Virus record (IMG/VR): IMGVR_UViG_3300046314_000658 | DNA: 64,000 bases | Source of the DNA: a virus | Reading direction: 5' to 3' (one strand) | Part shown: positions 6,424-62,900 of the stretch, piece after piece | Layout of the letters: every line of letters begins with the position of its first letter | How positions within the stretch are numbered: the first letter of the stretch is position 1 | Made by a program: the position numbers and the translations under genes | The notes under the pieces: generated by a model | The model's input: only the letters and a program-made list of their open reading frames with translations | The model's database searches: none | Told to the model about the DNA's origin: nothing

Positions 6424-6905
6424 TGCAGTTCTTTCAATAGGTCACCAAATCGAGGGTATGCGGCGGTGCGTATCGCAACATACTTCTGCACCCCAAATAT
6501 GTGAACTGGAATCTTTTTCTCCGCCACATATTTTATATCAACCACTTGACTAAATCGATCTGTAATAATTTGCTCAAGTAGTAGTGGTTGAAGTGCGTTT
6601 GCAACAACATCACCACGCTCAAATACCATAGGTCGCCAATCAAACTTATTGAATGGTAGAACATATACACTAGATTGTGACTGCACCCAATCAATCTCAA
6701 TTGATCGAGCCAGAACATCCTTTATTCCAACAATTTTCTCGATGATAACCTCTGTCGGAGAATGAATGTAATCACGATGACGGACCTTGACTACTGACAT
6801 TACTTTTGCACAAGGTGGACGGCTTTTGATTAAGCAAGTGCCTTCGCCAATTACTTGGCTACAGTGTTGTTTGATGAATTCGCGCTGAGTAGTAGTTAGA
6901 TACAC
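6420..6905 (-). CDS. Hypothetical protein
   Basis: 161-aa ORF with upstream TAAATA (6930-6935) and a 4-nt overlap with the next gene. Confidence 0.6.
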   Translation of the reverse strand: MYLTTTQREFIKQHCSQVIGEGTCLIKSRPPCAKVMSVVKVRHRDYIHSPTEVIIEKIVGIKDVLARSIEIDWVQSQSSVYVLPFNKFDWRPMVFERGDVVANALQPLLLEQIITDRFSQVVDIKYVAEKKIPVHIFGVQKYVAIRTAAYPRFGDLLKELQ

Positions 6906-6929
6906 TATGTGTTAACGTGATGCGTGAAC

Positions 6930-6947
6930 TATTTAGTCACATAAATA
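6930..6947. promoter_or_regulatory. Back-to-back divergent late promoters (TAAATA)
   Basis: TATTTA at 6930-6935 (minus) and TAAATA at 6942-6947 (plus), each 24 nt from a start codon; matches the core of the T4 gp55 box TATAAATA. Confidence 0.75.
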
Positions 6948-6971
6948 ACGCATACACTATTTTATGACACT

Positions 6972-7925
6972 ATGAAATTCTCACAATATTTATCTGAAGG
7001 CATTCGAGCAGCAGATTTCGAAAAGGCTGTTGGCACGATTGTTCAATATCTGCAAAAACAACTGGGTACAATGTATCGGTATCCACAGATTGAGCACTAC
7101 AGTGGTTCACAGGGTCAAGGGATTGGGTTGCGATATTTTCTGCAAGATGGCACTAGCTTGCGTTTCAATTGGACTTCAACGTCTGCATCTTCCAAGCTAG
7201 ATTCGATCTCAATTTGGGATGGTTCGTCTCGTCACCCTAATTTCCAGATTCGTGGTATTGGGGATGTGCCACTTGGTCAACTGTCACTCGCAAAGATCCT
7301 CCCAACACTTGCTCAAACTATCAAAAATCCAAAAGTTGGTGAAGTTGAGTTGTCTACACAAGAGTCAATCAGCGTACTGGCTGATTTGGATACCCAACTA
7401 TCCGAGAGCGTGTTGAACGAAGATGCATTCGATGATGTCGTCGGGGCGCTTGAACAAGGTGCTGTATCTGGCTACACATTCTCAAAGATGGGCCGTAACC
7501 AAGAGCGTATCTTCAAAGAGATTCTAGCTGCTCATAAAGACGAGTTTGAAACCAAGGTCGATGGTGCTGGACGTCAACGGTACACATTCACAGGCGAGCT
7601 CGGCGAAATTAGCCGGGATGATATCGTGGGCAATGTAGTTGGCAACCAACAAAAGAGTGGTCGTCTTGGACTATCCGTTTCAGTCGGCGGTAACGAGAGC
7701 ACAACAACAGATGGTGAAGATGCTGCAGCAAAGCAGTTCCCAGGTGCGCCAGCTCGGGTACCGTACGAAGAGCAGTTGGATGATATGAAGTCAATCATCA
7801 ATGCTGTTGTGAAAGGTGCGAGTAACTTCTCTGTGATATTAGGAGCTGGTGGACTTGGTAAATGTGCAAGTTCTGCGGTGTTATTGAATGGATCATTTAA
7901 AAACTGGGAAAAATCCCTCGCCTAA
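6972..7925 (+). CDS. AAA ATPase N-terminal fragment plus 20-aa split-intein IntN
   Basis: Ends ILGAGGLGK|CASSAVLLNGSFKNWEKSLA*; Walker A is cut before its Thr and followed by Cys1 (TGT 7863). Confidence 0.85.
   Translation: MKFSQYLSEGIRAADFEKAVGTIVQYLQKQLGTMYRYPQIEHYSGSQGQGIGLRYFLQDGTSLRFNWTSTSASSKLDSISIWDGSSRHPNFQIRGIGDVPLGQLSLAKILPTLAQTIKNPKVGEVELSTQESISVLADLDTQLSESVLNEDAFDDVVGALEQGAVSGYTFSKMGRNQERIFKEILAAHKDEFETKVDGAGRQRYTFTGELGEISRDDIVGNVVGNQQKSGRLGLSVSVGGNESTTTDGEDAAAKQFPGAPARVPYEEQLDDMKSIINAVVKGASNFSVILGAGGLGKCASSAVLLNGSFKNWEKSLA
7863..7922 (+). other. Split intein N-fragment (atypical, 20 aa)
   Basis: Cys1 directly follows the GK of Walker A; only block A is present. Confidence 0.8.
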
Positions 7926-8005
7926 AATACTTGCAGCCATTATCCATAAATAGTACTATTAATATACAGCAGCTAGTTCGCTGCATATATTTTTAGGGAC
8001 TAACA

Positions 8006-9322
8006 ATGAATGTTACCAACACCAAGCGCAAGAGCAAACACGAGCAACACACTACCGTCATACAGACGATCAACACTCCCGATCAGTTACTCGAATACGC
8101 ATTTGCAAAAGAGTTTCTCAATAGGGGAGATTGGAAGGGTTGGCACCCAGATGTAAAACAGCGTGCATTGCAGCTACTTGAGCTACCAGAGTGTAGTATT
8201 ACGAATTTTAATCTCAAAGTTCGGTTTGATGTACTAAATCCGAATCGCACTGCAAAACCAAATAACGTCGAACATTGGATCAATCGAGGTTGGACCGAAG
8301 CAGATGCAATGCTGCACATCAAAGCTATGCAAAAAGCTCGCAACAATAAAAAACAAGAAATGTTAACCCCCGAATACTGGGTACGAACTGGGTTGACTCT
8401 ACAGGAGGCGCAACAGAAAGCTGATGATTGTAGATTCGGTAATACAGCCAGGCGACCAGAATATTGGATTAAACAAGGTATGTCTGTAGACGAAGCAAAG
8501 ACGAAAGTATCTCAACACCAAAGCGCACACTCTCCTAAAACAGTTGGATATTGGACTGCGCAAGGGTTAACAGATGAACAAGCTACTAATAAAGTGTCAG
8601 AAGTGCAAACCAGTGCAGCAGCAATTGCAAAGCAGAAATGGAAGGATGGATTAATCGACAAAGCCACTCGTAACACCAATCTTGAATATTGGATCAAGAA
8701 AGCAAATGGTGATAAATTGCGAGCAAGAAAGTTGCTACGAGAGCGGCAGAGTACGTTTTCATTAGAAAAGTGTATAGCTACGCATGGAGAATTGAGGGGG
8801 ACCCAAATGTGGGAACAACGACAAGAGAAATGGCAGACTACGATGCAGTCAAAGCCCCCCGAGGAGTTGTTGCGGATATCTAGAGCAAAGCAGGTGCGTG
8901 GGAATGGGTTGCGATATGGTGTGGTATCACAACAGCTGTTCTGGGAGGTATTTAATATCACCCAACCTCTGGGGTATGCTATTTATTTTGCTGAACTTGA
9001 TCAAAAAACGAAAGTAAAAGCCATTCAAGGTAATCATGAATTTGTAATGTTCTGCGATGATGTGGTATATCGTCCGGATTTTTACATACCAGACATTGGC
9101 GTGTGGGTAGAGTTTGATGAGAAACATCACTGGGGGTGTACAGCAGCAAAAGCAAGCGACGTAATTAGAGAGACTAATATTAAACGAGTATTGAAAGATG
9201 TCACATTCATTCGCATCAAAGAAACAGAATTTGCAGACAATCCAGAAGATTGTGTGACGAAAATAGTTGATGTGATCTTAGCAAAACATCTCCAATACGA
9301 AGCAGCTCTCCAACAAGACTAA
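8006..9322 (+). mobile_element. Free-standing homing endonuclease (helical YW..G...EA repeats plus Vsr/PD-(D/E)XK-like domain)
   Basis: Repeats HWINRGWTEADA, YWVRTGLTLQEA, YWIKQGMSVDEA, YWTAQGLTDEQA; C-terminal YRPDFYI...VEFDEKHH. Lies between the intein halves. Confidence 0.8.
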
Positions 9323-9351
9323 ATACACGATACTACACTTCTACTACCACT

Positions 9352-9789
9352 ATGGATACTACTGCATTGAAACTTGAGACCAAATCGTTTGGTGAACTGG
9401 CCGACCTAATTAAGCAACATCTCAATATTACAGAGTTAGAACTGAATAGACTATACGACATTCGCAAGTTCGAGTGGACTGTTCAGGATCATAACGATAC
9501 TCCTATTCCAATTATTGGACTAATTCGCAAGCATAGTAAAGCAATTGCTTTTGAATTCAGCGATGGTAGTGAAATTATTACTTCCACCCACCACCTATTT
9601 GCCACTGACGATAGGTGCGATGTTACATTTGCTGCAGAGCTAGCGGTTGGTGATAGTATTACCAAAATTAGTGGTGAAAAAGTTACAGTAGTATCAGCAA
9701 CTGCGCTACCAGAGCAAGATGTGTACGACATCCAAGTTAAGTCTCACAAGATGTTGTATCGCGATGCAGCTGGTTTTGTGCACCACAAT
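9352..9789 (+). other. Split intein C-fragment (long, 146 aa; +1 Thr)
   Basis: HHN codons at 9781-9789; Thr codon ACT at 9790. Confidence 0.85.
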
Positions 9790-10434
9790 ACTCATACTGT
9801 TGAAGAAACACTTGGAGAACTTGGCTTAGAAGACGGGAATGGATACTTCAAAAACACATCGAGCGGCTCTGCAGCTGGATTGTACAAGACTCTATTCATG
9901 AACCGTACTGGCATTGTGGTGTTAGATGACTGTGATACGATTGTTGCCACACAAGAAGGTCGCAATCTATTGAAGGCTGCACTAGACACCAAAAAGAAAC
10001 GGAAACTCGTCTGGGCAAAAATGGGTTCTTGGTTGTTTGACCCAGCTGATGAAGAGGAGATGGCAAAGGCACAAGACTCCATCGCGGTTGGTGAAGAACC
10101 AGAGATGTTCCCACGATACTTCGACTTTGAAGGTCGTGTGATTATGATTAGCAACTTACCAGCAGAAACACTTGATCCAGATGGTGCACTAGCCACGCGC
10201 GGATTCATCATCACATTAAATCCAACGAAGGATGAAGTGTTTGCATTCATGCGTAAAATTGCACCGAAAATCCCCGTTGAAGGTCGTCAACTAACTGATG
10301 CTGAGCGTAATGAAGTTGTTGATATGCTTGAGAAGCAATCTGGTACCGCCAATATTCGAAAATTAGTTCGAGGTCTCAATATGTGTGCCAGTGGGACCCC
10401 TAATTGGCAAAGAATTGTCGAGCGTTATTGCTAA
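9352..10434 (+). CDS. 146-aa split-intein IntC plus AAA ATPase C-terminal fragment
   Basis: Block B TSTH, block F VYDIQV, block G GFVHHN|T; then THTVEE, Walker B VVLDDCD, NLLKAALD, IMISN. Own TAAATA at 9320-9325. Confidence 0.88.
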   Translation: MDTTALKLETKSFGELADLIKQHLNITELELNRLYDIRKFEWTVQDHNDTPIPIIGLIRKHSKAIAFEFSDGSEIITSTHHLFATDDRCDVTFAAELAVGDSITKISGEKVTVVSATALPEQDVYDIQVKSHKMLYRDAAGFVHHNTHTVEETLGELGLEDGNGYFKNTSSGSAAGLYKTLFMNRTGIVVLDDCDTIVATQEGRNLLKAALDTKKKRKLVWAKMGSWLFDPADEEEMAKAQDSIAVGEEPEMFPRYFDFEGRVIMISNLPAETLDPDGALATRGFIITLNPTKDEVFAFMRKIAPKIPVEGRQLTDAERNEVVDMLEKQSGTANIRKLVRGLNMCASGTPNWQRIVERYC

Positions 10435-10437
10435 AAT

Positions 10438-10463
10438 AAAGGACCAAATGCTGGTCCTTTTTT
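10438..10463 (+). terminator. Intrinsic terminator
   Basis: AAAGGACCA-aatgc-TGGTCCTTT followed by TTT, right after the stop codon. Confidence 0.8.
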
Positions 10464-10495
10464 GTTGCACTAGTATGCAACTATCATAAATAGAA

Positions 10496-10789
10496 GTGCG
10501 AGCCACGATGTACCACCATCCGCTCGCTCTAATGCTAACAAGGAGCAATCAGCATGACTATTTATACAATATATTTGGTGATGAATGTTGTTATGTAGAT
10601 AGCTCAACAATTGCTACCGACAACATAGTTAAGGGTTCTCGCGCAATTATTACACCGTTAGGAAGAGTTGGCAGTGTTGCTATTGCGTCAAAGGCTGCTA
10701 GCTTAAATCCATCAACAATCAACAGGCGTCTTAACAGTCCTAATTATCCCGATTGGTGTTTTGCTAATGAAGAGTTGATACACACCTAA
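10496..10789 (+). pseudogene. Probable homing endonuclease relic (NUMOD1/HTH-like tail only)
   Basis: IITPLGRVGSVAIASKAASLNPSTINRRLNSPNYPDW resembles endonuclease C-terminal DNA-binding modules; no catalytic domain is visible. Confidence 0.45.
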
Positions 10790-11438: not shown

Positions 11439-13064
11439 ATGCTAGTAAATTTTAGGCACGGTATAGTATCTGCCACGCAAAATGCAACACAACAACCTCG
11501 ATTCTTGCAAATGCAAGGTCAGGTGGTTAAAATAATTGCAACCAACACTCCAGTTGTATTGACAATTGCACACAGGCAATCAAACTACCTAGTTACAATC
11601 GAGCAAGATGTTGATACAGCTTGGGTGGGTGTTAGTGCAGCACTAACTTATCTATATGTAGATATTAACCTAAAGACGGGTGTAGTATCGTACGGGCACA
11701 CAACAACTCCACCTTTGATACAATCAACACTACCAACTAATGCAATTAACGGTCAACACTGGTTTGATCCGAGTATCGACACAATGCGCATCAGAGGGAT
11801 TGGTGCATGGCAAGAGTGTGCTAGATTGTTCGTTGGGACAGTCGTGGGTGGAATTGCAACCTGCTCTCCATTTGGTTCTCAAATCGGAAAAACCGGTAAC
11901 TTTCCAACTGGGAAACTTGCGTTTGATGGTAGTGGAAAGCCAATTTCAAAAAGCACGGGAGAGTTTTGGACAACGGATGATGTGTTTTATGTAAACGGCA
12001 CAATATCTGCACCATATGCATTTGGCACGCAACTACAAGTCGCGTCAACAGCAGAAGTAGTAACTCCAATGTCAGTGGTAGCGTATAGTGGCAATACATT
12101 CAACACAGTGCGACTAGCACAACCTAGCGATACTGGATACGCAACACTTGCTATAGCAATGGCCGGCGTTAGCGCAGGTGAAAAAGTTAGTGTCGTGTGC
12201 AACGGAGTCATTGTTAACCCAGCGTGGGCGTTTGTAAATCCGAATAGCTTAGTTTGGGTAGGCCAAAATGGAGTAATATCAACCACTCCCGACCCTGTTA
12301 ACACATCTCAGCCGATTGGGCGTGTAATAGATGCAAACACTATCGTATTTAACCCTCCGATTAGTGTTAGTGCTGGTACAGGTAGCGGTAGTGGACAGAT
12401 GGGACCAAGAGGACCAGAAGGTGCACAAGGGCCTGCCGGAGCTACTGGATTACCAGGGGCGCAAGGTCCTGCCGGTCCTGCAGGAGCAGATTCTACAGTA
12501 GCAGGTCCTGTGGGACCAACCGGCGCCAATGGTACTGGTGGAGTACGGCGGCAAATCATGTATGTAACGTCAGGGTTGGTCGGGTTCGGATCGATAACAA
12601 CTAGTTGGCCAGAAGTTGATGAATTGTATACTCCTGCTGATAGATTAGTTACATACGACGCATATAGTGGTATGTTTACCTTTTTAAAGGCAGGGTCGTG
12701 GAAAATTACTATGGCAGTTAACTACGGATTTCCGGTTGGTGGAAATCTTCCAATGGGAGCATCTACGTATATTAGCAGGATTGACTACGTTAGTGGCGGC
12801 GCTTACTGGCGGCGCAATGAACATCGGTGTCGATTGATGCTCGACAACACTGCATATTTAAGTAGTGACGTATTAATTGGAGGAATAGATGGGTATGCAG
12901 ACTTCTTTGTCAAAGAGGTTGGGGAAAATTCTCAGTTCCTAATCGAGATGAGGTCTGAAACTGACGTCAATTCAACCACATACAGTAGCAATCCAGTTGG
13001 GTTAACATACTCTGCGCTTGTTGCTTTCGAACTCGTCGATGAATACGCCCCAAACAACGTATAA
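11439..13064 (+). CDS. Virion fibre/structural protein with collagen-like Gly-X-Y repeats
   Basis: [28 protein letters not shown] at about 12400-12540; GQHWFD motif shared with the tail proteins. Confidence 0.75.
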
Positions 13065-55538: not shown

Positions 55539-58500
55539 ATGTTTGAAAAGTACGGAACAGATTACGCACATCCAGCACTTCAACTAAACGACCTGCTTCC
55601 GTCTGTTAATCAATCAGAAGCATCAAATAGCATTTTATCTACTTTGTTTCAGCGGTGGTTGACTAAGCCTAATCTAACCACCGTTGCTGGAACCATTGGA
55701 TTCTCACGTACTCCAATTGCTGGACTTATTCAAGAGGCGACACCACATCGTCAAGCCTATCAACTGCATCCGACATTCTACTGCGAGCAAGGTGATCAAA
55801 AACGCGTTACGGACTGGAACGACATTCTTCGCAAACTTGCATTTACGGGTGTCGATCCGCTGAAATATGATCAATGGGGAAGCACAACAGCATTCGATTT
55901 CCGCCCTCCAATTGATTTTGATAAGTTTGTTAACTTCAGTAGTTATTACTGGGTAAATGAGGTCGATACTATCGAGCAGCCAAATTACATTACGATTGCA
56001 CCTAATGCATCTCGTACCAACGACTGGTCGTATGATCCGGCCATCTCCCCAATGGTAGGTGGATGGGTTCACAAGAATGATATTGGGAATCGAATCGCAT
56101 ATGCTAAACAAGCGCAAGTACCAATCATTGAGTTTGATGACATTGAGATGTGTCAATGGTTCAAAGTCGTGCGCGTATGGAAGAAGTTTGATAGAACTAC
56201 TAACACCTACTCTACCACATCTGAGCAACCAATATGGTCTACTGTCGATTATGTTCCAACAACGTTGAGTGTTGCTGACACGATCGATACTGAGTGGGAG
56301 CTACTGAGTGAGACACTTGTACCAGTTGGATCCCCGCCAACCAACCCATTGATGCAGCAGTTGGTGCAATTGAAGTGTCAATACATCAGCACTGATGTTA
56401 TCAACAATACAGCTCGCTTTGAACTTCGTACAGCATTGATTGGTGGTGTTGTACAACAATACTTGCGTGGACAAAATGACATCGTGGTATTTGCTGGAAG
56501 TGACAATGCACAGATAGTGAACTTTACAGAGGTCGAACACCCGTCTAGCAATCAATATGGTACGCAGATTGATATACCGTTAACTGCATTAAGTGGTGTT
56601 AACCACAGTGTATTATATGCATATGTTGGTGCACATAGTGCGCATGAAATTAGTCGCGGATTAGGTAAAAAATTAATAGCACTTGCTGATGGATTTACAT
56701 CGTTCACTCCTATGAGTGGTGCCAAACTAGCATCTGCACAATATCGTAGTTTGTATGAATATAAGTTGTTTAATCAACGAAAGCTATCCAAATACCAACT
56801 CCCGCTATTTAATCTATACACACTCAAACCAACAGGCACGCATGCGGAGCAAACTACAGCTGGTTATATATTGCGCTATAGTCAAGATGCTAGCACTCCT
56901 ATTGATAGTCAATTAGGGCAACGTGTTGCAACGGCGTTGGGTGACGTATCGTTTACACTTGATTTAGTCAACAACGCGGGAGAACTCCTTACATATAAAC
57001 GCAATGATGTGCAAGTTACAGCAGACTGTGATGCGCACTATACTATTTGGAGGGGTCAATTAACTGCTAGTGGTATCGATACGCCTATTGTACACACTCA
57101 TGTGTACGTAGATTCAACTCGCTCTCCTGTTGCAAAAACTGAACCTGGTGGTTGGGAGCCATCGCAACTACTAACATCTAATCCACTACGCGAAACTCGC
57201 TCTCAATTTAAACTTAGTGAAGTAGTTAATCACTTTCAAAGGCTTGTACAAGGGTTACCTGGCACGATTACAATATCTGACGATGGTGGGAATTATCTAG
57301 TTTCATCGTTATTAGCAGATGGCGTGTCTATACCAGCGCTTGTTGAATTTGTCGCTACCGAACTCGCGACATATCGATCGCAATTTGAACAACAAATTAA
57401 GATGCAGTTGTTTAGTGATAGTACTCTTCGTACAACTCCAACTACCCAAATTGCATCTATTGTTTACCAAACTCTGCGTGACCACTCTCGTGTTGAAGGT
57501 GGTTCAAACTCGATATACGATGATACACTATCGTATGATGTTGATACGGATCTGGGATATCCAAGTTTTCCATTAACATTTGGTGTACTTGGGTTGGCAA
57601 ATCTTGTTAACATTACCATAGAAGCAGATCGCAAGCTAAATCATGCAATTCTTACAACACATGATGACACTTCGTATAGCACTACCATCACCCCACGAGA
57701 ATATGCTACTATTGAGGCTGCTTTATCTACCAACATAGTTGTTGGTGCTAATCCAACTCCAACAGATAATTACTGCATTTGGCAAAAAAACACAACTGAA
57801 TCATATCGTTTCGAATGTCATTATTTCTCTACATCTCCACCTGCTACTCCTACAATTAATGCAACGTGGTTTAATCCTACAACTTCAACTGCATCATTGT
57901 GGACGGGATCACAGTGGCGTGGAATTTCTACAAGTGAGTTGTGGATAGCATTCGATGTGGTAGAGGTGTTGCTGACTGTATTGAGTTACCAAGAGCGTGA
58001 TATTGCTGCATTAATCACATCTCGTTCACCGAGCGCACTACCAGCTATACTTGACTTGCATGCAGTTGCTGCGACAGATACTACTCAATACGGAGCATTG
58101 ATCAAACGAGACTTCGAAGACTTTGCATTTCAGTATCAGCAGCGAGATTTAGCAGATCAGGCTGTTAGTCGCTTACTTGCACCACCATCATCCACGAACC
58201 CATTTACGTGGAATTACGGTAGCATCTACCCATCCACACCTTCAGTATATCAGTTGTATCAACATATGTTTGGTACAACCCTCCCACACAAGTACCCTTG
58301 GAAAATGCAAGGCTACATCGATAAACCAGTGTGGTGGGATGTCGAGTATGCAGATACCACCGGTCAACGTCGTTGGTCTTCAGTTATGTGGACCAATATT
58401 GCCACTGGTACCATTCCTTATGGACGACTGCTCGCTAGTGGTGAAGTAGGTGCTAATATACCTGGACAATATTCAAACACTTACACTATTATCCCCGTTA

Positions 58501-61500
58501 ACTGCACTTCTGTGACATACTACGGGTATGCTCCTGATGATTTGCTACCACCGTACCTCAATACTCAAGATCAAACATATGGTAATACACATCCGTTGCT
58601 ACCATATGTACTGATTCCTGCACAAGTGACAGCAGCTTCTCCTGCGGTGCAAAATCCAACAGCAACACTTGGGCAGTATTTGATATTTCCAGTAATATAC
58701 GCATCTGGTAGTTTTATTGAAAATATATGGAAGACATCACCAACTGTTGTTTCACGTCACCTACGGGCTGCGTATTCAACTGACCCCTTACACTTTGCCA
58801 CGAGTGTACTCACTCGTGGATTTAATTCAATAGGAGGATTACGAGTCAACCCGATAACAAACAATGTATCACGCAACAGTGATCCACTACATGGTGAGGG
58901 GGGTGCAACTGACCATTCGCTATTTGCAGCGTTAACGTTCCTATCCCGTCGTTCTAACTTTGCTGCATTGGATGTATCACCCCTCACTACGTGGAAATCG
59001 TGGTCGACTCGATTAACATATCAAACCAATGCATTGATCGTTCCTCAAACACTCAAAATATATCAAGATTGTTATGACCTCACTGAATACTCAATCATTC
59101 TCAAAAAGAGTGAAAACATTCGTCGCATTCCATTCTCCAATATTATAATCACGTTAGCATCGATGGGTGATCCGTTAACATCTATGGATCGTGGTGAAAA
59201 CTGGACTTTTAAAATCGCATGTAGTGAAAACACTCCTACAATCCGTTACCGATACGCACCATTGCAGCAAGATTTTGTGTGGAATTCAACTAACAAGTTT
59301 TTCTCACTTAATGCAACTGAAGTATTTCGATGGGTAGACGGCGAAGCTGTGCAAATCACCAATCCTCCAACGTCTGTAACATCTAATTTATTCTACATTA
59401 GTACCATCAAAGATGCGACTGGTAATGCAGTAAGTAACGCATTTGGATTATACGGATCGGCAGTAGATGCCGTTATGGGCGTAAAAGCTTTAGTTTTCGA
59501 TGATATTTTTACCGGTCCAGTCGAATTCAGAACTGTTAAAGCAACGTTTACAGCGGGTGGTAGAGTATGGGAAACGGTTGAGGTTGATCGTCGCTCCCCT
59601 ATTAAATTTAGTTTTACGGATAATATTACTATCACTGGTGTACAAACACTCATTGACTTTGTGGTTAGCTACACGGAGTATATGCAAGATGATGGTATTG
59701 TGATTAATGCTGGTACCAATCCTGTTCTCGATCCGGATACAGACGCAGCGATATCCTGGCAACAACAAATCACAAAAGCGGTTGATAGGATTTTCGCTTC
59801 GAATGGATTATCAATTAATGATTACAGACCTGTTTTTGTACCAGATGCAGACGGCAAACTCCGTCCACTTACAGCTGATCGCATGTATATTGATACGCCG
59901 TTTGTTGAAATCAACCCTTTCCGCAGTGCTGTGTATTTCAATACTCCTGATGGTGTTATTTGTGATTTCACACGTACTCCATACACAAACGATCCCATGT
60001 CTCGAGCTGCAATATATGACGATACTGCTACCCCGATATCATCAACAGAGTTGATTCCTCTGCGCACGGACCGATTAACCTCTGTGGTATTCAATGATCA
60101 ACAGCCTGCTCGTTCCATAACCATCAGTCAAGATACATCGCGTCGCATTGCCTTTGGTGAAGTATCGCTTGATTTTTATGAGCACGTCATTGTATTTGAT
60201 CAACAAACATCCAATGGTCTGACAATTTTCGATCGTTTTTTCAATTTACAAAAAACATCACTAAACCTGGAAATGCAGAAGTCGACAGATTTTTACTATC
60301 GTCCTGTAATGGGTGGATTTGCTGTTACTGATGGGGGTACACTACCTAATTTCGAAACGATTGCTGAATATCAGCGTAATGACTACGATGTTACAGAGAG
60401 TAATGAACTCGTTCAGTCGACGGTGGATAGTCGCCAAATGTTAGGTAAAGCACCTCTTTCATACTTCCAAAATATTCCAGTAACATCTAAAACCGAATTC
60501 CAATTCTGGCAACAGATGATTCGTGAAAAGGGTACAAAAGGTGCCATCAATGCATTCACGCGACATCAACTTTATGATGAAGTTAAGTATGATGAATTCT
60601 GGGCATGGAAGCTTGGCACATTTGGTGCTGTAACTCCACGTAAGCAAATCGAAATGGCACTGCAGGTTGGTGACGCTATCCATACAGCAACCTCGTTTTA
60701 CTTCTCCGCCACTACGCCACCAGTTTCATCTTTTGTTGTACAGCAGATTAAACCATTAAATCAGACACGCTGGGTTGATTTTCCTAATTACCTTGATCAA
60801 GTTGGACAAACTGGAGTATTGTTTGCCGATACTCGACAACACGTTATTGCATCGGGTGATGGAACGGGGTATTTTACCAGCCCAGGTGATAACTTTGTTA
60901 ACATTGAATACAACACATCGACTACTATTACTCCCACGTGGGGGATAATCCCTACGGAAGATTACGAAGTGTTGAGCGCTCGCACTATACGGATTATTGG
61001 TGATGGATATGACTTATACAAGCAAAACGGATTCCGATTAACGGGCTTGATGCCTGCTTATGGTCAAATTTCTCCTATTCGAGTTGTCGACATTGACTCG
61101 AAAGTGGTAGTTAAGACAATGCCCGCTTGGGATCCAGCTAACAATATCCATACAACTGCAATTGCACATTTTGATTATTTGGTAGCAACTGACCCAGCAT
61201 CATACAACAGAACCGCTTATAACTCAACTGGTTCAACGTGGGGTGTTCAGCAACTTGGCCAATATATGGTTCGCAGTACTTCATTGGTGTATAAACCATA
61301 CTTCGATATTACAGCCTTCCCATTGTTGGATGATCGCACGCGATACTGGGGTCAACTCGCAGACGGGTACACACCAATCGCCTATCAGTGGGTGGAGTCT
61401 TCTACAATCCCTACAATTCAATCGATTGATGAACCACTCACCAGAAAGGTGAAGCGCAGTCGCGCTGACTCTAAAGTCACTATCGTCGCTAGTACTTCCC

Positions 61501-62900
61501 CAACCACGTTCGTGTGCTCATCTCCGCTGCCATCGCAGTATCGTAACACAACACTGGTTAACTTATACAAACCAAGTGAAATGATATCCAATGCGATGGA
61601 TGCTTTAGTGGGTGTAGAGTATATGATCATGGACATCGATGCGACTCGCACGTCGTTTACGCTACTTGCCAATGGTACTACTTTGGTGGTACCATTAGGC
61701 GCATCTGTTGCTGGGTTATTCATCGTGAGTACGTGGGATGATGTAGTTGTTACAGAAATACTACCACTTTCCCATACGTTTTACGTGCAAGCAGGCGCTG
61801 CAACTAACACGCTTCAACTACCTTGGACTAACATTGTAGGCGACACAACAATTACAACTACTGGTGAGTTGGTGAAGTTTGTTCTACACGACTTAACAAC
61901 TCCAACCGCCGTTGTTAATATTGATGGTGTAGCAGCAGCCTTTAGTGTCACTGCTGCTGGCACTCTAACAGTGTATGATGAATATAATCAACCATTCGAT
62001 TTCAGCAATCGTTCACTATCTGTTGTAACCGTAATGTACTCTGAGTCTGCTGTAGCAGCAACAGGCAGACCAATGACATCATCTTCTGACCTCGAGTATG
62101 TTGATATTGATGTACCATACGTGGAGTACACTCTCAGTGTTGACCAGTTGTCGGTAACCAAGTACTACTATTGGTCAGCATCTCCAACTTCAAACTCGCC
62201 TATCAAGACCGTCTCACTATCAGCAGCTATTGCCGACTTGGTGTATCCTCAATCGAATGCATATATTGCAATTCACGCAGATCGTCAACTACTAACAACT
62301 TGGGGGTTATATGGGATCCATCAACTGACATCTAAAGCACTAGCCATTGACATTGATGTTACAATGCGCGATCGATACATTGCACCATCAGTATCAAAAA
62401 ACACAAATGAGCAGTGGGTACTATTTCGGGAGTATCAAGATGGGTATCCAAATCAACATATTTGGAACTCCATTGTTGCTACTATCACCGGAACTCGTGT
62501 AGTGAATTCAACTTCGACGGTAATTATCCCATCACCAGACCGCGTGTCGTACGACTACTTGTATGATACGACATTGAGCTACGGCACAGGGTTGACTCAA
62601 TCTCTAATCTCACCAATACGCGCTCGTGAACTATTCCTTGAATTTTTCTCAACAACGAATCCGTTAATTGAGTCAACTTGGCACACATTGCTATCCAACA
62701 GTACGTGGTCTACTTTGGTAAATTCACTACGATATGCTGATGCATTAGATTATGTTTATACGTATTTGCCTCCAACCTTATTAAATAGCTTTATATTTGT
62801 AATACTTCGTGAAGGTTTATACAGTGGTTATCATTACGATGGTCTCTTTAAAACTAGCTTCATTGCGTTGCAAACCTCGCAGAAAGTTGTGGTTGGATAA
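55539..62900 (+). CDS. Very large baseplate wedge/structural protein (2453 aa)
   Basis: Follows gp6; FDKFVNFSSYYW, QFWQQMIREKGT, FKTSFI; TAAATA at 55508. Confidence 0.75.
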   Translation: MFEKYGTDYAHPALQLNDLLPSVNQSEASNSILSTLFQRWLTKPNLTTVAGTIGFSRTPIAGLIQEATPHRQAYQLHPTFYCEQGDQKRVTDWNDILRKLAFTGVDPLKYDQWGSTTAFDFRPPIDFDKFVNFSSYYWVNEVDTIEQPNYITIAPNASRTNDWSYDPAISPMVGGWVHKNDIGNRIAYAKQAQVPIIEFDDIEMCQWFKVVRVWKKFDRTTNTYSTTSEQPIWSTVDYVPTTLSVADTIDTEWELLSETLVPVGSPPTNPLMQQLVQLKCQYISTDVINNTARFELRTALIGGVVQQYLRGQNDIVVFAGSDNAQIVNFTEVEHPSSNQYGTQIDIPLTALSGVNHSVLYAYVGAHSAHEISRGLGKKLIALADGFTSFTPMSGAKLASAQYRSLYEYKLFNQRKLSKYQLPLFNLYTLKPTGTHAEQTTAGYILRYSQDASTPIDSQLGQRVATALGDVSFTLDLVNNAGELLTYKRNDVQVTADCDAHYTIWRGQLTASGIDTPIVHTHVYVDSTRSPVAKTEPGGWEPSQLLTSNPLRETRSQFKLSEVVNHFQRLVQGLPGTITISDDGGNYLVSSLLADGVSIPALVEFVATELATYRSQFEQQIKMQLFSDSTLRTTPTTQIASIVYQTLRDHSRVEGGSNSIYDDTLSYDVDTDLGYPSFPLTFGVLGLANLVNITIEADRKLNHAILTTHDDTSYSTTITPREYATIEAALSTNIVVGANPTPTDNYCIWQKNTTESYRFECHYFSTSPPATPTINATWFNPTTSTASLWTGSQWRGISTSELWIAFDVVEVLLTVLSYQERDIAALITSRSPSALPAILDLHAVAATDTTQYGALIKRDFEDFAFQYQQRDLADQAVSRLLAPPSSTNPFTWNYGSIYPSTPSVYQLYQHMFGTTLPHKYPWKMQGYIDKPVWWDVEYADTTGQRRWSSVMWTNIATGTIPYGRLLASGEVGANIPGQYSNTYTIIPVNCTSVTYYGYAPDDLLPPYLNTQDQTYGNTHPLLPYVLIPAQVTAASPAVQNPTATLGQYLIFPVIYASGSFIENIWKTSPTVVSRHLRAAYSTDPLHFATSVLTRGFNSIGGLRVNPITNNVSRNSDPLHGEGGATDHSLFAALTFLSRRSNFAALDVSPLTTWKSWSTRLTYQTNALIVPQTLKIYQDCYDLTEYSIILKKSENIRRIPFSNIIITLASMGDPLTSMDRGENWTFKIACSENTPTIRYRYAPLQQDFVWNSTNKFFSLNATEVFRWVDGEAVQITNPPTSVTSNLFYISTIKDATGNAVSNAFGLYGSAVDAVMGVKALVFDDIFTGPVEFRTVKATFTAGGRVWETVEVDRRSPIKFSFTDNITITGVQTLIDFVVSYTEYMQDDGIVINAGTNPVLDPDTDAAISWQQQITKAVDRIFASNGLSINDYRPVFVPDADGKLRPLTADRMYIDTPFVEINPFRSAVYFNTPDGVICDFTRTPYTNDPMSRAAIYDDTATPISSTELIPLRTDRLTSVVFNDQQPARSITISQDTSRRIAFGEVSLDFYEHVIVFDQQTSNGLTIFDRFFNLQKTSLNLEMQKSTDFYYRPVMGGFAVTDGGTLPNFETIAEYQRNDYDVTESNELVQSTVDSRQMLGKAPLSYFQNIPVTSKTEFQFWQQMIREKGTKGAINAFTRHQLYDEVKYDEFWAWKLGTFGAVTPRKQIEMALQVGDAIHTATSFYFSATTPPVSSFVVQQIKPLNQTRWVDFPNYLDQVGQTGVLFADTRQHVIASGDGTGYFTSPGDNFVNIEYNTSTTITPTWGIIPTEDYEVLSARTIRIIGDGYDLYKQNGFRLTGLMPAYGQISPIRVVDIDSKVVVKTMPAWDPANNIHTTAIAHFDYLVATDPASYNRTAYNSTGSTWGVQQLGQYMVRSTSLVYKPYFDITAFPLLDDRTRYWGQLADGYTPIAYQWVESSTIPTIQSIDEPLTRKVKRSRADSKVTIVASTSPTTFVCSSPLPSQYRNTTLVNLYKPSEMISNAMDALVGVEYMIMDIDATRTSFTLLANGTTLVVPLGASVAGLFIVSTWDDVVVTEILPLSHTFYVQAGAATNTLQLPWTNIVGDTTITTTGELVKFVLHDLTTPTAVVNIDGVAAAFSVTAAGTLTVYDEYNQPFDFSNRSLSVVTVMYSESAVAATGRPMTSSSDLEYVDIDVPYVEYTLSVDQLSVTKYYYWSASPTSNSPIKTVSLSAAIADLVYPQSNAYIAIHADRQLLTTWGLYGIHQLTSKALAIDIDVTMRDRYIAPSVSKNTNEQWVLFREYQDGYPNQHIWNSIVATITGTRVVNSTSTVIIPSPDRVSYDYLYDTTLSYGTGLTQSLISPIRARELFLEFFSTTNPLIESTWHTLLSNSTWSTLVNSLRYADALDYVYTYLPPTLLNSFIFVILREGLYSGYHYDGLFKTSFIALQTSQKVVVG

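Follow-up and report, generated by a model that had tools for sequence, protein, structure and literature searches.

A phage ATPase gene apparently fractured within its Walker A motif by an atypically split class-1 intein and a nuclease gene

Introduction

The locus described here raises the question of how a phage might obtain an intact ATPase from a gene that is divided, in the middle of its Walker A motif, between two open reading frames (ORFs) with a third ORF lying between them. It was found at positions 6,972 to 10,434 of a viral DNA stretch of 64,000 nucleotides (nt) (IMG/VR record IMGVR_UViG_3300046314_000658), and the whole of that stretch is called the window below. A preliminary description of the window, made from its letters alone, had proposed an atypically split intein in an AAA-type ATPase, with an N-terminal intein fragment (IntN) of 20 amino acids (aa), a C-terminal intein fragment (IntC) of 146 aa and Thr as the +1 residue. 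The question has a practical side as well, as few split inteins have an IntN short enough for peptide synthesis. Our analysis suggests that the likely answer is a fractured phage ATPase gene that carries in its Walker A motif a class-1 intein split at the position known as S1, and whose two products would be joined by trans-splicing to give a 511-aa protein.

Results

The three ORFs lie on the same (+) strand, each in a different frame (6972-7925, 8006-9322 and 9352-10434). The first encodes 317 aa and ends with GAGGLGK, a Cys (TGT, 7863-7865), 19 further residues and a TAA stop (7923-7925). The third encodes 360 aa with no in-frame start upstream of 9352; its residues 1-146 end in His-His-Asn, and residue 147 is Thr (ACT, 9790-9792). 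The second, a nuclease-like ORF of 438 aa, lies between these two halves of the ATPase gene, 80 nt past the IntN stop, and its own stop is followed by the IntC start after 29 nt.

The extent of the interruption was defined by comparison with relatives that lack it. With the C-fragment as query 354 relatives were found, several of which (P0007-P0013) are 511-513 aa long, read contiguously through GAGGLGK-THTVEE, and are 87-92% identical to the window in the C-extein and 68-87% identical in the N-extein. At the DNA level, GGT AAA/G in the intein-free loci L005-L007 runs directly into ACT/ACG CAC ACC GTT. Since these loci are uninterrupted at this point, window positions 7863-9789 represent a clean insertion of 1,927 nt, and the flanking segments of 297 and 214 aa add up to 511 aa. 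The insertion point falls within the Walker A motif (GLGK↓T, the arrow marking the point of insertion), and the inserted DNA consists of a 20-aa IntN with Cys1, the free-standing nuclease gene and the 146-aa IntC, after which comes Thr+1. Joining of the exteins restores the Walker A sequence GAGGLGKT. The coordinates 7863-9792 of the preliminary description are therefore exact, its Thr+1 is the residue that completes GKT on joining, and the search for contiguous homologues at the Walker A site that it had suggested returned both the intein-free 511-513-aa alleles and the contiguous mini-inteins described below. The phage collection gave no nucleotide match to positions 6900-10500, and the 64-kilobase (kb) window contains neither a second copy of the ATPase nor further inteins. 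An artefact of assembly or sequencing that introduced false stops into a contiguous gene would be a scarcely credible explanation of this layout, as an identical 317-aa N-fragment has been recorded from seven contigs and the same architecture is present in independent samples and in diverged relatives.

The host protein matches phrog_1250, a family of unknown function. In a joined homologue, Pfam AAA_16 scored 21.9 bits, below its cut-off of 32.6, and the best viral fold matches in BFVD were to uncharacterised phage AAA+ proteins, including a homologue of the T4-type NrdC.10. On the strength of these matches the predicted host is an AAA+-like phage protein with a phosphate-binding loop (P-loop). 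Viral contigs that carry its homologues reach 368 kb, as would suit a jumbo phage, in this case one from a lake.

In an alignment of 41 IntC-bearing proteins (38-92% identity), His81, Asp126, Gly141, His145, Asn146 and Thr+1 are invariant. The preliminary description had placed blocks B, F and G all in IntC, which holds for the three of them. Its block F (Asp126) and block G (His145-Asn146) are correct, but its T-x-x-H assignment of block B was one residue off, because the invariant block B histidine is His81, the second His of the string T-S-T-H-H, and the residue at -3 is thus Ser78 and not Thr. The AlphaFold model of the window C-fragment, from which IntN is absent, has a mean predicted local distance difference test (pLDDT) score of 87.6, and of about 90 over IntC. 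All of its top Foldseek matches in the PDB are inteins, among them gp41-1, DnaB, Cat and VidaL. Among solved sequences the family profile matched VidaL (6vgv) best (E 1.9e-11), then gp41-1 and Cat (6dsl, E 4.6e-8), and the contiguous relative P0131 alone matched VidaL at E 0.002. IntC is thus, as modelled, the Hint-fold domain of a class-1 intein. Its ratio of nonsynonymous to synonymous substitution rates (dN/dS) between L011 and L014 is 0.13 at a dS of 0.95, while that of the adjoining extein is 0.12; between the window and L001 it is about 0.15 with dS saturated. Purifying selection on IntC that is on par with that on the extein argues for a working splicing domain.

Contiguous versions of the intein show where it has been split. 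A search for longer relatives recovered mini-inteins in the same ATPase (P0131-P0133, P0135 and P0136; 647-655 aa) that are 36-43% identical to the whole window C-fragment and align end to end with IntN plus IntC. A model of one contiguous intein (L018:5947-6417; pLDDT 95.3) has VidaL as its best structural match, with a template modelling (TM) score of 0.82; in it, residues 7-12 and 15-20 form strands joined by a two-residue turn, and residues 21-32 form a helix. The contiguous P0135 is collinear with its split sister P0033 save for a break after intein residue 16, the split form beginning one residue past that position. Together, the alignments, this pair and the modelled strands indicate that the family is broken in the turn of the first beta-hairpin. 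In the window C-fragment model, residues 1-12 of IntC are disordered and residues 13-24 form a helix; such disorder would be expected of a strand that lacks its partner. By these models, the break site is the 'S1' of VidaL and PolB16 and not the 'S2' of the TerL inteins. The features of an S1 split are also present in the window, namely separate genes, an IntN that is shorter than 40 aa and holds no block other than A, and an IntC in which blocks B, F and G are found. The atypical split, with the fragment lengths first proposed, is thus supported by homology, fold and comparative genomics.

The N-terminal fragments of relatives follow the same plan. All five related N-fragments, or six of six counting the window, have a Cys directly after GLGK or GTGK, then a short tail (12, 14, 16, 17 and 18 aa in the five) and a stop. 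Further tails of 13 and 14 aa are supplied by IMG/VR loci, so that IntN ranges from 12 to 20 aa in the family and reaches 33 aa in one clade. Judged by its recurrence in these sequences, a Cys after GLGK with a 12-20-aa tail and a stop is not the product of chance. The fragments have Cys1, Leu8 and a hydrophobic residue at position 12 in common, and mostly Gly10 as well (C-x6-L-x-G-x-hydrophobic). Conservation ends at position 12, residues 13-20 being unconserved, and as nothing is kept beyond position 12 these residues of the window IntN are probably dispensable. Given a range of 15-37 aa for characterised natural IntN fragments, tails of 12-14 aa would undercut every one of them. The preliminary description had taken the 25-30 aa of TerL-type inteins as its background for short IntN fragments, a comparison that is out of date since VidaL (16 aa) and PolB16 OarG (15 aa) have already been characterised.

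Several observations weigh against a functioning split intein in the window. Position 2 of its IntN is Ala, at a site where Leu, Gln or Phe predominates in relatives, and the usual Thr of block B is Ser78 in the window copy, at a position that varies across the family. In a pairwise PDB search the window IntC alone, too diverged to match VidaL, gave only a marginal match to gp41-1. The unsaturated dN/dS values come from a sister clade and not from the window's own clade. Finally, no recognisable ribosome-binding site precedes IntC and no promoter-like site was found there, a consensus scan giving counts no higher than in shuffled sequence. IntC had been called separately promoted; with its start so close behind the nuclease stop and no promoter-like match, this description finds no support in the window. 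A reading of positions 7926-8005 as a terminator or promoter was also rejected, as the hairpin has 5 base pairs (bp), the fold z-score is -0.88 and the sites are no commoner than in shuffled sequence.

These observations would be compatible with a dead relic, in which the nuclease gene broke the intein and splicing ended, the ATPase being either lost or at work as a non-covalent complex held together by the intein halves. Besides the off-consensus residue at IntN position 2 and the expression signals that were not found before IntC, this possibility is favoured by the fact that splicing activity is only predicted and that close relatives carry intein-free alleles, so that the gene can exist without the element. 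We nevertheless consider a relic unlikely, since every catalytic residue has been kept in the 41 diverged sequences, the purifying selection on IntC equals that on the extein, and both exteins are intact and 74-92% identical to uninterrupted alleles. A P-loop cut between Lys and Thr would, in addition, leave the non-covalent complex without a normal Walker A motif. An intein that is probably active in trans-splicing is, from the pattern of conservation, the explanation we prefer.

The N-terminal part of the nuclease ORF has repeats of a helical 'E-Y-W..G..E-A' module, and the C-terminal approximately 90 aa keep D358, E369, D371 and R388. Alone, the window copy had no match in the PDB or NCBIfam, and its Pfam matches (MTES_1575 and PvuRts1I_N) were both sub-threshold. 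The homologue in L008 clears the DUF559 cut-off, and the family profile matches the Vsr-like domain of AbaSI (E 0.0017). We regard it as a candidate Vsr/DUF559-type nuclease, for which the sequence evidence is moderate. L001-L004 and L008-L010 have homologous ORFs in the corresponding position. Those of L001 and L002 are 41-42% identical to the window ORF, and that of L008 has the repeat region in common with it.

The arrangement at this site varies widely among the 80 IMG/VR viral loci that were kept for the distribution count. The site is empty in 64 of them. The split form is present in 12 of the 80. In eight of these the halves flank a nuclease gene (L001-L004, L008-L010 and L011), and in four they are separated by only 145 nt that contain no nuclease gene (L014, L017, L019 and L023), the nuclease-less form, as at L014:5790-5935, having a 13-aa IntN. 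A contiguous mini-intein is present in three loci (L016, L018 and L020), and the remaining one (L022) has an IntC-bearing C-fragment with an incomplete N-fragment. A segment of 2.7 kb that includes two genes on the opposite strand separates the halves in L001-L004, and there the IntC must be separately promoted. A separate observation concerns L008:3959-7020 (also L009 and L010), a split variant in which Ser replaces Cys at intein position 1 and IntN is 33 aa long. Its DUF559-type nuclease ORF runs into the genes on either side, overlapping that of the N-fragment at its end and that of IntC at its start.

This variation bears on the possibility that the break is healed in RNA or during translation, either because the nuclease gene lies in a self-splicing intron or because frameshifting or readthrough yields a contiguous intein precursor. 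Vsr-like homing endonucleases do occur within group I introns too (PMC2677866). An Rfam scan of positions 7700-9500 was, however, empty even at E 10, with neither a group I or group II intron nor any other family, and the intron reading was rejected. Translation would have to cross three frames, a stop and gaps of 80 nt and 29 nt, while in relatives the halves are either separated by the 2.7 kb with opposite-strand genes or only 145 nt apart without any nuclease gene. Healing of this kind is very improbable, and trans-splicing of separate products remains the explanation that we favour.

The split form is present in at least 41 protein clusters. In the intein tree the window clade, with six split members that all have the insertion at GLGK↓T, forms a long separate branch, and in another clade contiguous and split forms are interleaved, which indicates that breakage or re-joining has happened more than once. 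Most members of the family (among P0019-P0045, P0131-P0136 and L008-L023) have their insertion at G-G↓T-G-K-T, three residues further upstream, and the G-K↓T site is used by the window clade and by the clade of P0025 and P0030. One intein lineage thus uses two P-loop positions that are three codons apart. A different intein occupies G-K↓T of the same ATPase in P0127-P0130, P0134, P0137 and P0138 (90% C-extein identity for P0127). It begins with Ala or Phe, and so without an N-terminal nucleophile, has Trp/Cys/Thr at the class-3 positions and contains a LAGLIDADG domain.

An intein-only profile retrieved 2,718 representatives at E<=0.001. Among them, many proteins that begin with an IntC of 135-145 aa (P0166-P0236) run past H-H-N↓T/C into other P-loop hosts, namely ClpB-type AAA proteins, ResIII/DEAD helicases, SNF2, RecA and AAA_5. 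This suggests that many uncharacterised atypically split inteins reside in phage P-loop proteins, and by this profile the VidaL-like class is far larger than its few characterised members.

The comparison of L001 with L002 gives an indication of what moves. Over some 8 kb the two phage genomes match at 97-100% identity, and their IntC and C-extein are 100% identical in DNA. Identity drops to about 50% in a stretch (L001:3140-4700) that begins at the P-loop codons, takes in IntN and ends about 30 nt short of the nuclease stop, with a left boundary in the P-loop codons, where the differences are synonymous only, and a right boundary in the last approximately 30 nt of the nuclease gene. The IntN pieces of L001 and L002, of 13 and 14 aa, have about five residues in common. 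A divergent IntN and nuclease gene beside an identical IntC indicates that IntN and the nuclease gene move together as a single cassette, and that one IntC has been paired with two different IntN pieces. We propose, tentatively and as a reading that may well have to be revised, that the mobile unit is IntN plus the nuclease gene and not the whole intein and, provided that both phages are viable, that this IntC is naturally promiscuous and that the family holds the shortest natural IntN yet seen (12-14 aa).

The features of the locus are collected in Table 1. Elsewhere in the window, on the + strand, an ORF of 541 aa whose middle contains a collagen-like Gly-X-Y run, probably for a protein of tail-fibre type, is found at 11439-13064, and a very long ORF of 2,453 aa at 55539-62900.

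Table 1. Features of the interrupted ATPase locus, in window coordinates
Feature	Position	Strand	Basis
N-extein, 297-aa N-terminal part of the ATPase including the first seven Walker A residues (GAGGLGK)	6972..7862	+	Collinear with the first 297 residues of P0007-P0013 (511 aa, intein-free)
IntN, Cys1 and 19 residues (7863-7922), with TAA stop (7923-7925)	7863..7925	+	Comparison with related N-fragments
Short GC hairpin and T-rich run, possibly terminator-like or 5'-untranslated-region-like (weak evidence)	7969..7984	+	5-bp stem
Free-standing homing-endonuclease-like gene, 438 aa	8006..9322	+	N-terminal helical repeats, C-terminal Vsr/DUF559-like domain
IntC, 146 aa: block B His81 (9592-9594), block F Asp126 (9727-9729), block G His145-Asn146 (9784-9789)	9352..9789	+	Alignment, AlphaFold, Foldseek, profile
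C-extein, Thr+1 (Thr of GKT) and 213 aa of AAA+-like core and lid with Walker B-like hhhhDD, then stop	9790..10434	+	phrog_1250, AAA_16 (sub-threshold), BFVD folds, 90-92% identity to intein-free alleles
Terminator-like hairpin, 9-bp stem and T run, directly 3' of the C-extein gene	10438..10460	+	Hairpin scan

Discussion

In the scheme that we propose, a class-1 mini-intein inserted between the Lys and Thr of Walker A would itself have been broken, in the turn of its first beta-hairpin, by a Vsr/DUF559-like homing endonuclease gene. The upstream gene would then supply the 297-aa N-extein with the 20-aa IntN, of which only the first 12 or so residues (Cys1 and one beta-strand) may matter, and the downstream gene the 146-aa IntC, comprising the rest of the Hint fold, together with Thr+1 and the ATPase core. 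Docking of the IntN strand on the first strand of IntC would complete the Hint fold, after which formation of a thioester at Cys1, attack by Thr+1 and cyclisation of Asn146 would release the ATPase of 511 aa, its GxxGxGKT loop made whole. Until then, neither half should be able to bind ATP. The role of the nuclease is most likely to maintain the mobility of the element, and in relatives it appears to move with the IntN-coding segment. Within this scheme it is the splicing activity and the target of the nuclease that we infer.

The closest known counterpart is VidaL (6vgv/6vgw; cited in PMC13014065), which has a 16-aa IntN and depends on Cys. Like the window intein, VidaL is naturally split directly past the first strand of the beta-hairpin (S1), with a short IntN that starts with Cys1 and a long IntC that carries blocks B, F and G. 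Its crystal chain ends in H-A↓S-G-K, which places VidaL in a P-loop as well. The two differ in the +1 residue (Ser in VidaL, Thr in the window), in IntN length (16 versus 20 aa) and in the insertion point, which is G-G↓S/T-G-K for VidaL and GLGK↓T, three residues downstream, for the window.

The organisation of the locus matches that of the fractured genes described by Dassa, London, Stoddard, Schueler-Furman and Pietrokovski in 2009 (PMC2677866). In those loci, too, a phage gene is in two pieces, and an endonuclease gene, free-standing and of the same orientation, is flanked by the halves of a split intein. Their nucleases are of a Vsr-like family, of which the window ORF is a candidate member, and a hairpin precedes the nuclease gene, where the window has its 5-bp hairpin of chance level; one locus, a terminase, is also atypically split (PMC2677866). 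In contrast, their hosts are enzymes of DNA synthesis and repair and the terminase, whereas ours is an AAA+-like ATPase; all but one have the canonical split, with an IntN of 88-105 aa and not 20 aa; and in many of them the nuclease gene extends over the start of IntC, from which the window nuclease gene is separated by its 29-nt gap (PMC2677866).

Other short-IntN inteins are more distant. PolB16 OarG has an S1-type atypical split like that of the window and, at 15 aa, the shortest characterised natural IntN, yet it is cysteine-independent (Ser1/Ser+1), resides in PolB and has a 168-aa IntC with an insertion (PMC10189870); its structural match to the model of the contiguous relative was weak (rank 30). 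AceL-TerL, GOS-TerL and Cat are unlike the window intein in that they are split past the first helix (S2), have an IntN of 25-37 aa and interrupt the large terminase. The engineered Ssp DnaB S1 and M86 (11-aa IntN) have the same structural split position, and their IntN is close in length to the 12-14 aa of the window's relatives; these systems were, however, split artificially and evolved in the laboratory, whereas the window presents a natural gene arrangement.

With respect to novelty, on which the preliminary description had been cautious, our literature search found no description of this host gene and none of an atypically split intein that combines Cys1 with Thr+1. The element nonetheless belongs to a VidaL-like family that is large and found widely in phage metagenomes, and it represents a further VidaL-like intein in an apparently undescribed host gene and neither a new kind nor a new principle.

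For protein chemistry, the family offers many natural IntN variants of 12-20 aa with Cys1 and Thr+1. The pairing of one IntC with two different IntN pieces is a natural experiment that suggests loose partner requirements, and if the phages of L001 and L002 are both viable, that IntC accepts divergent ultra-short partners. The locus also illustrates in detail how an intein may be fractured by a free-standing nuclease gene, and which part then moves. In the jumbo-phage ATPase to which it belongs, the Walker A loop appears as a hot spot, for which four states were observed: empty, with a split class-1 intein, with a contiguous class-1 mini-intein, or with a class-3 intein that carries a LAGLIDADG domain.

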